Shown: positions 10,918 to 56,725, counted from the first letter of the stretch. The stretch: 64,000 nt of DNA from an uncultured Gemmatimonadales bacterium (GCA_963798915.1 CAWCVB010000007.1:64001-128000); one strand, 5' to 3'. Numbers and translations: made by a program. The notes: generated by a model from the letters alone, not told the origin.

Positions 10918-11020
10918 CTTGTAGCTCTGAATCTGTGTACTGCGGTAGCGTCTGGATAGGGTGGTAACCCGATCCGCCTGGGGGCTTCGGGCCCGTTCGT
11001 TCGGCTGGGTGCGACCCGTC
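10918..11020 (+). ncRNA. IS110 left end with partial bridge RNA (target loop only)
   Basis: cgc-CT-TGTAGCTC... homologous to 46828-47014; same GGGTGGTAACCC stem and internal loop. Confidence 0.75.
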
Positions 11021-11054
11021 GCCGGACCACTTCTGCCACGGGACCGTAGCACAG

Positions 11055-11921
11055 CTACGGCTCTGCGTCGAGAAAATCGTTCACCATTGGAACGATGATG
11101 GGCATGCGCTGCATCAAGGTCACGTGAGTGGTGTTGGGCAAGATGGCCAATCGCGATGCGGAGCGCGGCTTCATGTCGCCGTGGATCTCGCCACCCTTCA
11201 GGCGAAACATCTCCGCGACGTGCGCGAGCCGCACGCCGTCAGCGTCGCCGTGGATGAAGAACATGGGCGTCGTGGTGGCCTTGAGCTTGTCGGCTCCGAA
11301 GTCGTACTCTTTCGAGGCCGTGGCGACGACTCGCCGGACGAAGGTCGGAAAGTTGTCCGGAGTCGGACTCAGCTTCTTGTACTCGGCCTCAATGGGCGAG
11401 CCTTTGAAAGCGTCCGCCGTGAGTTGGAGGATAGCTTCGCGCGCTTCCGGGATCATGCCGTCTCGGCGGAACGTGGACGAAATGATGACTGCCCTTCGCA
11501 CCTTCTCGGGATGGCGGATCGCACACTGCATCGCCACGGCGCCGCCCATGCTGTAGCCGATAAGGTCCGCGCGCGGGATCTTGAGATAGTCGAGCAGCGC
11601 GGCCACGTCGTCGGCGAGGTTTTCGTAGGTGATATCGCGTGGGATATCCGCCGTGCGGCCGTGGCCTTGCAGTTCAACGGCAATGACTTGCCGAGTCTTG
11701 GCGAGCTCGCTGATCCACCCGTCCCAGTTGTTGGTGATGGTCATGAAGGCGCCGTGAAGCAACACCACCGGGTCGCCGCCGCCGTGGATTTCGTAGTACA
11801 TGTTGAGTCCATTGACTGGCGCGTAGCCCGTCGTTGGCTTCTGCTGCGCCGCCGTGTCAGTGGCCACCAGCGTCATCAGGAGGAAAGTGGTTGTCCACAT
11901 GCTGGTGTAATTCCGTTTCAT
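11055..11921 (-). CDS. alpha/beta hydrolase
   Basis: VLLHGAF, GYSMGG, IHGDAD, TTHVT. Confidence 0.88.
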
Positions 11922-12010
11922 CTGAACACTCCTTGCGAACTCACCCACTACGGGAATCGTTGGTCCCCCTCCCGGAGCCAGCGATGTACGCGCACACGGG
12001 ATTGGCTGCG

Positions 12011-12521
12011 TCATGGTGTCTCTGTGCTTGATCCCAGGCTGACGAGAAGCTCGTCGAGTTGGTCGAGCGTCTCGGGCAACGCGCCCATCGATCCAGATTC
12101 AAGCGCTTCCTTCGAGGGATAGAGATCGTGCACGACCAACAACGTCTTGCCGGCGTTTTCCTCGAAGGTCACCGTGGTGATGGTCTTGCCGTCGTCTCCT
12201 TCCTCATTGGTCCAAACCAGGCGTGAGGGCGGTGTCACTTCGAGGTAGGTGCCGAAGAACTCCATCGTCGAATCTTCGTGGCGAAACGCCAGACGATACT
12301 GCCCCCCAACGCGAACATCCATTTCGCAGGAAAGCAGGGTCAGCCCGTACGACTTTGGGACCCACCACCTCCTGAAGAGGTCCGCCTTGGTCCACGCCTC
12401 GAACACGAGGCGGGCAGGACCGTTTACGGTTCGCGTGACGACGAGTTCGCGTTCGGACTTCCGTTCCACCGTCGTAGGGTTCTTCGTGGGGGTGGCGTCA
12501 CTTTGCTCTTCTTTCGTCCAT
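12011..12521 (-). CDS. SRPBCC family protein (probable frameshift near start)
   Basis: [24 protein letters not shown] at 12521 runs out of frame after 7 codons. Confidence 0.75.
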
Positions 12522-12864
12522 CGACTCCCTCCTTCCGTGTGCATTCCTCGACCACGTTGTCCAACTCGTCGAAGCGTGCGCTCCAGAGCTGGCGGTACCT
12601 CTCGATCCATGCCGCCTCTTCTTCCAGTCCGCGGAGGCCGAGCCTGCAGGTCCGTACGCGCCCGACCTTCTCCGTGGTGACGAGCCCCGCTTGCTCCAGG
12701 ACCCCTACATGTTTCTTCATGCCCGTGAGGGTCATGTCGAACCTCTCGGCAAGGGCCGTAATCGAGGCGTCCGCATGCCCGAGTTGCTCCAGAACGCCAC
12801 GTCGGGTGGCGTCCGAGAGCGCGCCGAACGAGGCGTCGAAGTGATTTTGGCGATACTGAACCAT
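12424..12864 (-). CDS. ArsR/SmtB family transcriptional regulator
   Basis: FGALSDATRRGVLEQL...MKKHVGVLEQAGLV..EKVGRVR. Confidence 0.88.
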   Translation of the reverse strand: MVQYRQNHFDASFGALSDATRRGVLEQLGHADASITALAERFDMTLTGMKKHVGVLEQAGLVTTEKVGRVRTCRLGLRGLEEEAAWIERYRQLWSARFDELDNVVEECTRKEGVDGRKKSKVTPPPRRTLRRWNGSPNANSSSREP

Positions 12865-12876
12865 GTGGTTCAGTAT
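12853..12876. promoter_or_regulatory. ArsR operator palindrome overlapping the start codon
   Basis: Perfect inverted repeat ATACTGAACCA-TG-TGGTTCAGTAT. Confidence 0.75.
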
Positions 12877-13059
12877 ACAGCATGGCGTGACGGCATGCAA
12901 TGGGGGGCTGATCGCGACTGGCGGAACTGTCCGGCGCACATGGCCCGGCGCGTCGCGTCCGGCGGAGCGACCCGAGACCGTGCCGGACCGCGAGGACCGC
13001 TCAGTCGATAGGAGAGCCACCCTTCACGATCGCAGTGTGCCGTCGCTTTATCTATATAT

Positions 13060-13612
13060 TCGTCGAGATGCTGACCGCGGAGAAGAACCGGCTGGGCTTT
13101 GCCCGGGGCCCGGTCAAGCGCGATATCAGCCAGCACATTCGCTGGCTCGAGAAGCGGCTGGCCGACGTCAACGGCGACCTGCAGGAGGCCGTCGCGGCGA
13201 GTCCGCTGTATCGAGCCAAGGCCGAGCTCCTGACCAGCGTACCCGGCGTCGGGCAGGTCACGACGCTCACGCTCCTGGCCACCCTCCCTGAACTCGGTCA
13301 GCTCTCACGTCACCAGATCGCGGCGCTCGTCGGCGTGGCGCCCATGAATCGGGATAGCGGCACGATGCGCGGCAAACGGATGGTCTGGGGCGGCCGGGCA
13401 CCCGTGCGGGCGGTGCTCTATATGGCGACCCTCGTTGGCATCAAGCACAACCCCGTGCTCCGAGTCTTCTACGCGCGGCTCCGGGCCGCCGGGAAGCCCT
13501 TCAAGGTCGCCGCCACAGCCTGCATGCGAAAGCTGCTCACGATCCTCAACGCGATGCTCACGCACAACCGCCGGTGGAACGCAGAACACGCTTGACTTTC
13601 GAGACAGTTGCT
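13060..13612 (+). mobile_element. IS110 3' half (truncated transposase plus right end)
   Basis: Near-identical to 47509-48061; ends GAGACAGTTG-CT-AAC. Confidence 0.92.
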
Positions 13613-13648
13613 AACGACAGGCAGATCAGCTGCATTTGCGTGTTAGAC
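13609..13648 (-). repeat. internally deleted attC site
   Basis: CTAACGACAGGCAGATCAGCTGC|ATTTGCGTGTTAGAC, equivalent to the attC at 52978 with its centre removed. Confidence 0.7.
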
Positions 13649-54911: not shown

Positions 54912-55047
54912 GGCGAACGACAAGCGCTTCAGCTGCGGGGCGGTCGCCCCGTCAGGAATCAAAGTTCAGTCTCGGCCAGACGGGACGCTAGTACCGCACG
55001 GAACCCCGGCCGACGGCCGCCCCGCCAGCTGCAAGCGCAGGTTAGAC
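54912..55047 (-). repeat. attC site
   Basis: GGCGAAC..GCGCTTCAGCTG ... CAGCTGCAAGCGCAG-GTTAGAC. Confidence 0.88.
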
Positions 55048-55054
55048 CGTTGCT

Positions 55055-55492
55055 CTAGAGGAGCTTTGGAAACAGCTCCTCGAGACGCTCAAATCGGTTA
55101 GATGGCAAGAGCTGCTCGTGCTCATTGACCTTGAAATCGCCGTCTCCGGCCAAGCGAATGCGCTGGTCGCGGATTCGCAGTTCTATCTGCCCACCGGAAA
55201 GTACATAGCCTGCTGAGGGAGAATGATGTAGGAAAACGCCGAACCATCGATGGCCGCTCGCTGACAGTCTCGTGAGCTGATTCTTAGTGAGCCCCCAGAA
55301 GCCGGGATCGCTGGTGCTCTCCTTGACGTAGAGAACAGTCGGACGTGGAACCGTCGCGAGCGCGATGAGGTTGGCGGACCGGCGCGTTCCACCGGACCAC
55401 CGCGAGACGGCGATGCCACGTGCGCAGAGGAGGCGGCTCAGCGATGTCTCGAACTTAGGAACCAGGCGCAGCGCCATTCCTAGACTCCACAT
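55055..55492 (-). CDS. hypothetical protein (first cassette)
   Basis: ORF between the attI-like site and an attC; LYVKES...GFWGLTKNQL. Confidence 0.65.
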   Translation of the reverse strand: MWSLGMALRLVPKFETSLSRLLCARGIAVSRWSGGTRRSANLIALATVPRPTVLYVKESTSDPGFWGLTKNQLTRLSASGHRWFGVFLHHSPSAGYVLSGGQIELRIRDQRIRLAGDGDFKVNEHEQLLPSNRFERLEELFPKLL

Positions 55493-55514
55493 GCGATTTA
55501 CTTCCGGGCAAGCG

Positions 55515-55589
55515 GTCTAACAAGTATTCGACTGCGAACCTGCAGCCTAAGCCAATAAGCACTATACCGGCCGCAGCCTAATCCGGGAA
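55515..55589 (-). other. putative attI site with Pc-like promoter
   Basis: Lone GTTAGAC core (55515-55521) without attC palindrome; direct repeats TTAGGCTGC (55542-55550, 55573-55581); TTCCCG-17-TATAGT. Confidence 0.6.
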
Positions 55590-55860
55590 GACTGCAAAAC
55601 CTGACCGGCCCAACAAGTCCGCCGGGCTCCGTACCGCCAGCCCACCGCGGTTCAGGACATGGGTATAAAGCATGGTAGTGCTGACATCCCGGTGCCCCAG
55701 CAGTTCCTGCACCGTCCGGATGTCGTAGCCCGCCTCCAGCTGGTGGGTCGCGAAGCTGTGGCGGAAGGTGTGACAGCTTGCCCGCTTGCCAATGCCCGAG
55801 CGCCGCACTGCCTCCGCCCGCTGCACCGCACTCGGATGTAGATGATGCCGCCGCCTTCTT
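55578..55860 (-). pseudogene. intI: integron integrase, C-terminal fragment
   Basis: [53 protein letters not shown]. Confidence 0.92.
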
Positions 55861-55888
55861 CGGCTGCAAACGCAGATCAGGCGGCGCG

Positions 55889-56593
55889 TTAGTTCTCTTC
55901 AAGCGCCTCTAAAACCGCCCGGGTTGAACAAACGCGTCCAAATACCATGGCGAACGTCTCCAGCGCCGATCGGTGTCGATCGTCGCCTGGAGCGGCACAG
56001 CTGTCTGCAAGAATGATGACGCTGAAGCCGCCATCGGCCAATTCGCGGGCTGCCTGAGTAACGCAAACGTCCGTGGTCACGCCGACAACGAGCACAGTGT
56101 CTACGCCAAGCACGTGGAGCGTTTGATCCAGCCGGGCAGAGTTCAGCGGTCCGCTGGTCGTCTTTGCCAGGACGGGTTCACCTTGCCGGGGAGCGAGGCT
56201 CGCGTGAATCCGCCAACTGTCGTCATCCCGCGGTGGGTACATTGGCGCACCAACCGTCTTCTGGCTCAATTGGTTGAGTTGCCGAGCCCAGCCGGGCAGA
56301 TCCCGCCCGTCACTGCGGAAGGAGCCGAGAGCCGTGAAGTAGATCGGGATTCCCAGTGTGCGACAAGACTTGAGCACTTCCTGGACATTTGGAACTACGG
56401 TAGTTCTGACACGGTCGAAATACGCAGCGGCTGCGTCAGGCTGAAACTTGGCTAGGACCTGGCCGAACGGGAACTCAGGTTCCACGAAATACCGCTGCAT
56501 GTCGACCACAAGCAGGGCGCTACGATCAGGCCGCACACGGAGGGTTTCCTCACCCTTGAGGGCGGCGTATGCTTCAAAGTCGCTGATGTCCAT
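55889..56593 (-). CDS. cysteine hydrolase (isochorismatase family)
   Basis: [21 protein letters not shown]. Confidence 0.9.
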
Positions 56594-56631
56594 TCCGCAA
56601 TCCTCCCAGATGCAGAGCTCGTTGTTGCCGT

Positions 56632-56725
56632 CTGGTATCTCTGAATCTCACGTCCGCAGCACGTTCTGGATAGGCTGTTAACCCGTTGCGCCTCAGGCTT
56701 CCAGGCCGTTCGTTCGCTTGGACAG
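56632..56725 (+). ncRNA. IS110 left end with degraded bridge-RNA target loop
   Basis: gccgt-CT-GGTATCTC...TCTGGATAGG...ACCCGTTGCGCCT...CCGTTCGTTCG. Confidence 0.7.

Follow-up and report, generated by a model that had tools for sequence, protein, structure and literature searches.

An IS110-type insertion sequence with a candidate bridge RNA aimed at the attC sites of a Gemmatimonadales cassette array

Introduction

The IS110-type insertion sequences (IS) IS621 and ISCro4 are described as combining a DEDD recombinase with an upstream RNA that carries a target loop and a donor loop (PMC11208160; PDB 8wt6, 9t56). In the sister family IS1111, the elements ISPa21, ISPst6, ISKpn4 and ISPa25 make up a group that inserts at integron attC sites (PMC11187229, PMC3001079); the text of PMC11187229 gives no target sequence for ISKpn4. 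Here we describe six IS110-type ends in a 64,000-nucleotide stretch of DNA from an uncultured Gemmatimonadales bacterium (G000:C7:64001-128000, “the window”; part of contig C7 of a 3.3-Mb genome with 66% G+C, 85% complete), in which a chromosomal integron cassette array extends from about 7.3 kb to 56.8 kb. The six ends very probably belong to IS110-type elements whose DEDD recombinase and upstream bridge RNA are aimed at the R' box of attC. Literature searches on bridge RNA or IS110 together with attC returned no description of an IS110-type clade that targets attC.

The element and its copies

The window carries one intact element together with partial copies of different ages (window coordinates throughout):

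46915-48061, plus strand: intact IS110-type element, 1,147 bp including both CT cores
46915-47111, plus strand: left-end non-coding region, read as the bridge RNA gene, 197 nt
47112-48044, plus strand: DEDD recombinase gene, 310 amino acids (aa), Pfam PF01548 and PF02371
48045-48061, plus strand: right end, 17 nt, the last bases being the core CT
46828-46914, plus strand: tandem duplicate, 87 bp, an exact copy of positions 1-87 of the left end up to and including the right target guide
13060-13612, plus strand: 5'-truncated recent copy, the final 553 bp with right end and core, 552/553 identical to the intact copy
10918-11024, plus strand: old left-end relic reduced to the target loop, with right guide TTCGTTCG, ~83% identity
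52904-52981, plus strand: old right-end relic of ~78 terminal bp, with 79% identity to the intact copy, E 6e-10
56632-56721, plus strand: old left-end relic, right guide TTCGTTCG, 78% identical to the intact copy, E 1e-12

Non-coding sequence in the intact copy amounts to 197 nt upstream of the recombinase gene and 17 nt downstream. The recombinase matches PF01548 (E 1.3e-24) and PF02371 (E 4.7e-19) in Pfam, and is homologous to the solved bridge recombinases of ISCro4 (E 1.9e-42) and IS621 (E 1.2e-37).

The initial annotation, made from the sequence of the window, had placed six IS110-family ends at CT cores on cassette boundaries. All six are real, both when read directly and by BLAST to the intact copy, and the junctions and recombinase domains confirm the family. 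Left junctions read cgc-CT (10918), gcc-CT (46828) and cgt-CT (56632), and the right junctions read ACAGTTG-CT-AAC, with CT at 13611-12, 48060-61 and 52980-81. The left end at 46828 is present but required correction, being the start of the exact 87-bp duplicate; the element proper begins at 46915, after the junction ...GTTAGC-CT-TGTATC. Guide pairing does not account for this duplicate junction, for which an assembly artefact is a possible alternative explanation.

A CT core is present at each junction, on both sides of every copy, including a further full copy on contig C2 (96.6% identical to the intact copy by BLAST; a seventh end pair) with the flanks ..GCCGC-CT on the left and CT-AACGCC plus an attC on the right. 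The 16-mer TTTCGAGACAGTTGCT occurs 3 times against 0.27 expected, and 3 occurrences were reached in 0 of 100 shuffles. Identities to the intact copy of 99.8-100%, 97% and ~78-83% fit the earlier proposal that copies range from intact to eroded and that the array was colonised repeatedly. The 10918 relic (BLAST of 10912-11021 in the 3.3-Mb genome: 82.7%, E 4e-25) and the copy ending at 13611 are separate elements, given identities to the intact copy of 83% and 99.8%, respectively.

Insertion within attC

The array contains dozens of related, imperfect palindromes (repeat families D6-D20) that begin ..CTAACGAC..GCGCTTCAGC.. and finish ..GCTGCAAGCGCGGGTTAGNC. For attC detection we used half-site hidden Markov models (HMMs) derived from 14 window sites, a family-specific model that misses other attC types; it replaced ungapped arm matching, by which almost all sites were missed, and a crude palindrome score that was too noisy. 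The half-site HMMs identify 16 paired attC sites on C7, all in a single orientation on the plus strand. As expected of an integron array, co-oriented imperfect palindromes with RYYYAAC and GTTRRRY boxes lie between open reading frames (ORFs), and ORFs with coding-type G+C and Pfam domains are almost all on the minus strand (hydrolases, toxin-antitoxin pairs, RibD_C). The brnA ORF has its stop at 48189, overlapping the right-hand box of its own attC, and the next ORFs begin 34-90 nt left of the left-hand attC box. From this gene orientation and these positions we infer that the right-hand box is R'' and the left-hand box R', the crossover end. The attC sequences next to the IS ends are:

48060-48194, minus strand: attC of the brnTA cassette, R' box split by the element
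13611-13651, minus strand: internally deleted attC abutting the right end of the truncated copy
52980-53108, minus strand: attC abutting the right-end relic
56740-56787 (about), minus strand: attC right half left behind the 56632 relic

Right ends in the window read ACAGTTG-CT-AACGAC and run on as an attC left arm. That they lead directly into attC had been noted before, and an attC left-half HMM match starts exactly at each of the three, paired with a right half at 48060 and 52980; at the 10918 left end, an R'-like flank is the only sign of attC. Insertion occurs at a fixed position and in a fixed orientation: on the cassette strand the insertion point is GTT-AG-GC, inside the 3' R' box and two bases past G/TT, and the element is antisense to the cassettes in all cases. 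The appearance of the empty target site can be read from unoccupied paralogous attC sites: starting at the CT, the one at 35403 and the occupied one at 48060 share >30 nt without a difference, and the one at 51595 corresponds in the same manner to that at 52980, also occupied. AACGA, the perfect right half, is found at 3/3 occupied window sites versus 5/10 unoccupied CT-core sites, although these numbers are small. The 41-bp attC at 13611-13651 is a deletion derivative of the 129-bp type at 52980-53108, and looks like the product of a deletion between two CAGCTGCA repeats.

A candidate bridge RNA and its guides

We collected 227 relatives of the element from species-representative genomes and kept 80 of them. 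Their ends are conserved, with CT-TGTATCT at the left end in 77/80 and A(G/C)ACAGTTG-CT at the right end in 78/80, and the upstream position of the non-coding region is the same in 77/80 (those in which the left-end start was found). The parts of the predicted RNA in the intact copy are:

46956-47014, plus strand: target-binding loop
46969-46976, plus strand: left target guide TTGCGCCT, the last bases being the core CT
46993-47000, plus strand: right target guide TTCGTTAG, whose reverse complement CTAACGAA matches the right flank CTAACGAC
47032-47079 (about), plus strand: donor-binding loop
47038-47046, plus strand: left donor guide ACAGTTGCC, pairing with the right end ACAGTTG-CT

Across 57 distinct sequences from relatives, the left end folds as two internal loops with 22 pairs in 6 helices. 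In this alignment 97.4% of 1,253 cells are paired, and compensatory changes occur in 12 of the 22 pairs. None of 500 shuffles reached this level and slid partners gave 33-47%; relatedness inflates shuffle tests, so that the slid-partner control is the fairer one. The inner stems were recovered independently by RNAalifold. We aligned only the two loops, since MAFFT on complete left ends gave no usable alignment across the variable 5' part. In the first loop, the left guide consists of the 8 nt that follow the 5' stem and end in the core, and the right guide of the 8 nt that follow the inner hairpin and end in AG. The target loop and both guides had been placed correctly in the initial annotation, and the six guide strings that it quoted are all present as written.

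Tabulating flanks against guides, which the initial annotation had proposed as a check, shows that guides match their own flanks far better than do the guides of other classes. The test started from 78 rows, of which 6 were dropped for short flanks or a deleted guide, and the 72 insertions tested fall into 42 guide classes. Right guides match their own flank at 4.60 of 5 non-core positions, compared to 1.95 for other classes (maximum of 1000 permutations, 2.47), and left guides at 3.75 of 6, compared to 2.22 (maximum, 2.61). Specificity seems to come mostly from the right guide and the core, or from another factor such as attC structure.

The donor loop carries ACAGTTGC, and this left donor guide changes along with the right end in relatives, covarying with at least five right-end variants (ACAGTCG, ACAGGTG, ACGGTTG, ACAATTG, ACAATCG); the right donor guide, read by eye, is CAAG, set against CTTG. 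In the joined ends, TTGACT (48041-48046, right end) would lie 17 nt from TATCTC (left end), and could be the -35 element of a junction promoter. Such promoters, formed by the joined ends, are known in the IS110 family.

Target variation among relatives

In a quick tree (3 rows dropped for internal stops), CTAAC-guided elements fall into a clade of 25 rows, fully supported, and three basal lineages, and the 44 rows with other targets are recovered as one clade. An attC left half of the window's type is located exactly at the right end in 15 of the 25 relatives with GTTAG guides, all of them paired at 82-141 nt and 10 of the 15 with a neighbouring attC in the same orientation; the corresponding number for relatives with other guides is 0/52. 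By right-guide class, the guide matches its own flank exactly in 13/17 (CTAACGA), 4/4 (CTAACGC), 1/2 (CTAACGG), 1/1 (CTAACAA) and 0/1 (CTAACGT) cases. At left position -1, a T flank is found in 4/8 insertions of T guides versus 1/17 of C guides, counted over copies that are not independent. The suggestion that guide variants track attC variants is thus upheld for right-guide classes among the relatives, but not for the specific pairing of CGTTCG guides with CGAAC boundaries (see below).

Four copies in one metagenome-assembled genome (MAG), L009-L012, encode an enzyme with 86% aa identity to that of the window and carry the right guide TACCCTAG. They occupy CTAGGGT/CTAGTAT sites (CTAGGG/CTAGTA) that are not attC, and their lineage is nested inside the attC clade; judged by these sequences, L009-L012 represent a recent natural target change within an attC-targeting clade. 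L012 has a 3-nt deletion in its left guide. L010 and L011 (about 1243-1362) contain tandem partial left-end duplications bounded by CT cores, with a unit of 60 bp. The junction falls exactly at left-guide DNA (..GTTCCGC-CT-TGTATC), and the bases that follow it (AGGGG) are similar to the right target of that lineage (AGGGT), which suggests self-insertion followed by loss of one copy.

In the distant attC-targeting relatives L032, L033, L045 and L072, the recombinase frame crosses the right end and stops at the TAA of CTAAC, so that the stop codon would be supplied by the target. Plasmid relatives reach at most about 59% identity and have no IS name.

Recent mobility

A 99.91% identical copy (L007) is present at a different attC-like site in another MAG, and contigs from soil and groundwater sequencing runs contain the element from its first base (46914/46915) to its right end between other flanks. 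Together these copies indicate recent mobility. A search of the window's genome for an empty site built from the L007 flanks gave no counterpart. In the contigs of 4 public runs we saw neither an end-to-end joint nor a contig across the window's own flanks or the 87-bp duplicate, which is not evidence of absence.

Weighing of the evidence and alternative explanations

Several observations count against an RNA-guided element specialised on the R' box. In folding energy, the left end does not surpass shuffled sequences (z 0.18), and a scan of the window at Rfam gathering thresholds found no matching family. Left-guide pairing is weak in the attC clade, with 3/8 at the intact window copy and typically 4-6/8, core included. 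The R'/R'' assignment depends on gene orientation and not on a strand-selection test. Ten of the 25 GTTAG-guide relatives have no match to the window-derived attC model; by eye, at least L007 and L025 lie at other attC types, and L029, L063 and perhaps L017 are not at attC. One of the runs with other flanks is a metatranscriptome library, whose contigs could be DNA carry-over.

The alternative that fares best, though we consider it rather unlikely, is that target choice is mainly structural, with a folded or hairpin-prone attC being recognised by the recombinase-RNA complex, a proposal made before for IS110 elements that target palindromic repeats, and guide pairing fixing only the exact position. 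The weak left-guide matches and the single orientation of all copies relative to attC are consistent with this idea, as are the targeting of REP (repetitive extragenic palindromic) sequences by IS621 (PMC11208160) and the sequence-structure dual-match logic that a 2026 preprint reports for ISPpu10. However, the same-guide relatives L029 and L063 are inserted at CTAAC(G) sites without a recognisable attC, and the nested CTAGGGT lineage switched its target together with its right guide, with no attC involved.

It is less likely still that some of the six ends are duplicates or rearrangements of cassettes already bearing the element, rather than independent insertions. The right ends at 13612 and 52981 are flanked by one attC type, and the array does have duplicated cassettes (repeats D3, D4, D5, D9). 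These two copies nevertheless differ greatly in identity to the intact copy (99.8% versus 79%), yet their attC flanks are near-identical at both ends, so that two hits on paralogous attC sites fit better than a single duplicated insertion.

The initial annotation had also proposed that CGTTCG guides match CGAAC boundaries, and a sub-lineage with this right guide tuned to CGAAC-boundary attC sites (30377, 54914) is very improbable, since the guide is found on dead stumps with CT at their left junctions and the change they share is at chance level. Both left-end relics of the window do bear TTCGTTCG, as does the stump of an unrelated element from a mat metagenome. CGAAC boundaries do exist, at 19259, 30377 and 54914 (two of them quoted as 30375 and 54912, within 2 nt), and guide-target tracking is real among relatives, at other positions. 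However, all three CGAAC attC sites are unoccupied, and in both window relics the left junction reads CT rather than CG, and the left guide has CCT. A CG core would require changes in all four guides and the donor, and according to Durrant 2024 (PMC11208160), pairing with the CT core on both strands is strongly preferred. Relative to seven close relatives, A>C is the only real private substitution common to both relics, with 1.25 expected by chance.

The three CGTTCG carriers are all stumps that lack a right end, leaving no right flank to read. None of the 80 related loci is an intact CGTTCG carrier. Across 401 genomes of the order, CCGTTCGTTCGNNTGG was matched 38 times, and among the 30 matches examined a left-end context was present only at the window's own; the other 8, of which 7 are foreign, lacked a locus. 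A metagenome scan for a CGTTCG guide with an intact donor loop returned 4 contigs with one truncated element and no intact carrier, and this match came from searching for that very string. The contigs (L117-L120, microbial-mat and other metagenomes) carry the TTCGTTCG guide on a left end followed by about 61 codons, with ~51% aa identity over 57 residues.

The cassette array and neighbouring genes

The sole trace of an integron integrase gene in the window is its last ~86 codons:

55614-55865, minus strand: intI C-terminal remnant, profile positions 229-314 of 315

Where the N-terminal part of intI would be, there is a minus-strand isochorismatase ORF (55892-56593). The old left-end relic is found 38 nt upstream of this ORF, such that the integrase gene is truncated beside an old copy of the element. 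The integron in the window is probably inactive. Four of 5 relatives' genomes encode a full-length IntI above the curated cut-off, apparently oriented like the cassettes, and in several of them it is ~1-20 kb from the IS copies, provided that contig numbers correspond.

The 10918 relic ends at a junction to an unrelated block (11025-13059, minus strand) that encodes an alpha/beta hydrolase, an AHSA1-domain protein and an ArsR-type regulator, contains no attC, and lies between this relic and the 5'-truncated copy. The hydrolase end of the block (11024-11995) is 91.7% identical to L019:1-970 of another MAG, where it also lies beside an IS copy, on the opposite side and in reverse orientation. 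The placement of this block may be the result of an element-mediated rearrangement.

Other repeats and mobile genes also occur in the array. A duplicated hydrolase cassette (29218-29517 and 53755-54054, 98%) has a CGAAC boundary on both copies, and a ~0.7-kb repeat (39801-40490 and 42703-43391, 99%) is spaced by 2.9 kb. An rve-type integrase/transposase ORF (37774-38928) and a Y2_Tnp fragment (18786-19556) are present as well. Outside the window, clusters of attC-like sites are found on contigs C2 (506-513 kb), C4 (54-62 kb) and C13 (5-12 kb); those on C4 and C13 are near contig ends, and the array may therefore be larger, or split by the assembly.

Discussion

Anatomy, homology, RNA covariation, guide-flank matching and attC context are direct observations at these loci, and they can be assembled into a working mechanism. 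The left end would be transcribed as a bridge RNA, possibly from the junction promoter of a circular intermediate, and the donor loop would pair with the element's own joined ends, ACAGTTG-CT-TGTATC. The target loop would pair with both target strands around the CT core, the right guide CGTTAG reading CTAACG(A) and the left guide loosely reading ..G(C/T)-CT; reverse-complementing the R' box and spacer of the array's attC sites gives the sequence read in this manner. The element would land in GTT-AG-GC, two bases past the integrase crossover and antisense to the cassettes, and, because of this position, become the first part of the downstream cassette. As to the order of events, the array was presumably colonised several times, with two recent copies, and three older ends that would be debris of deletion and rearrangement.

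Tentatively, a deep Gemmatimonadota IS110 clade may independently have become a parasite of integrons, one that aims at R', is possibly mobilised by IntI, diversifies its right guide along with attC subfamilies and has given rise to a self-inserting CTAGGGT escape lineage. If this is true, the element would travel at the head of a cassette, and two enzymes could move it, its own and the integron integrase. The CTAGGGT target would then resemble the lineage's own left-guide and hairpin DNA, leading to self-insertion and tandem left-end duplications.

The relatives provide a natural series of related bridge RNAs on one scaffold, in which guide changes can be read against many insertion sites, including a recent target switch, and the weak left-guide requirement is relevant to the off-target rules of bridge recombinases. 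For integrons, both the IS110 and the IS1111 type appear to have adopted attC as a landing pad, one at each end of the site, and landing at attC bears on the decay and rearrangement of cassette arrays.

Comparison with known systems

The window element shares with IS621 and ISCro4 the DEDD recombinase and the upstream RNA with target and donor loops and, as IS621 is described, a left guide 5' of the right guide, a flanking CT core and a palindromic repeat as target. Unlike IS621, which targets REP and is reported to have a 4-nt right guide (PMC11208160), it targets the attC R' box with a right guide of effectively 7 nt (core + 5), and its left-guide matches are loose. ISEc21, an IS110-type seekRNA element, likewise has its non-coding region upstream and a bottom-strand match 5' of the top-strand match, but a linear target in IS3 transposase genes (PMC11187229); the likeness is one of description.

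With the IS1111-attC group the element has in common a site- and orientation-specific insertion in attC, antisense to cassette transcription, by an RNA-guided DEDD enzyme. In IS1111-type elements, as described, the non-coding region follows the gene and the guides come in reversed order (PMC11187229), whereas the RNA of the window element is upstream; the difference in layout is judged on the position of this region, subterminal inverted repeats not having been searched. IS1111-attC insertions are described as lying near the 5' end of attC and those of the window element in the 3' R' box (PMC3001079 for the former). Group IIC-attC introns are also mobile elements specialised on attC and inserted antisense, but they are retroelements with an unrelated mechanism that are reported near the 5' end of attC (PMC3001079). 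We regard the window element as a new member of the IS110 elements with bridge RNA. Its choice of target was already known in the sister family IS1111, and it does not represent a new mechanism.

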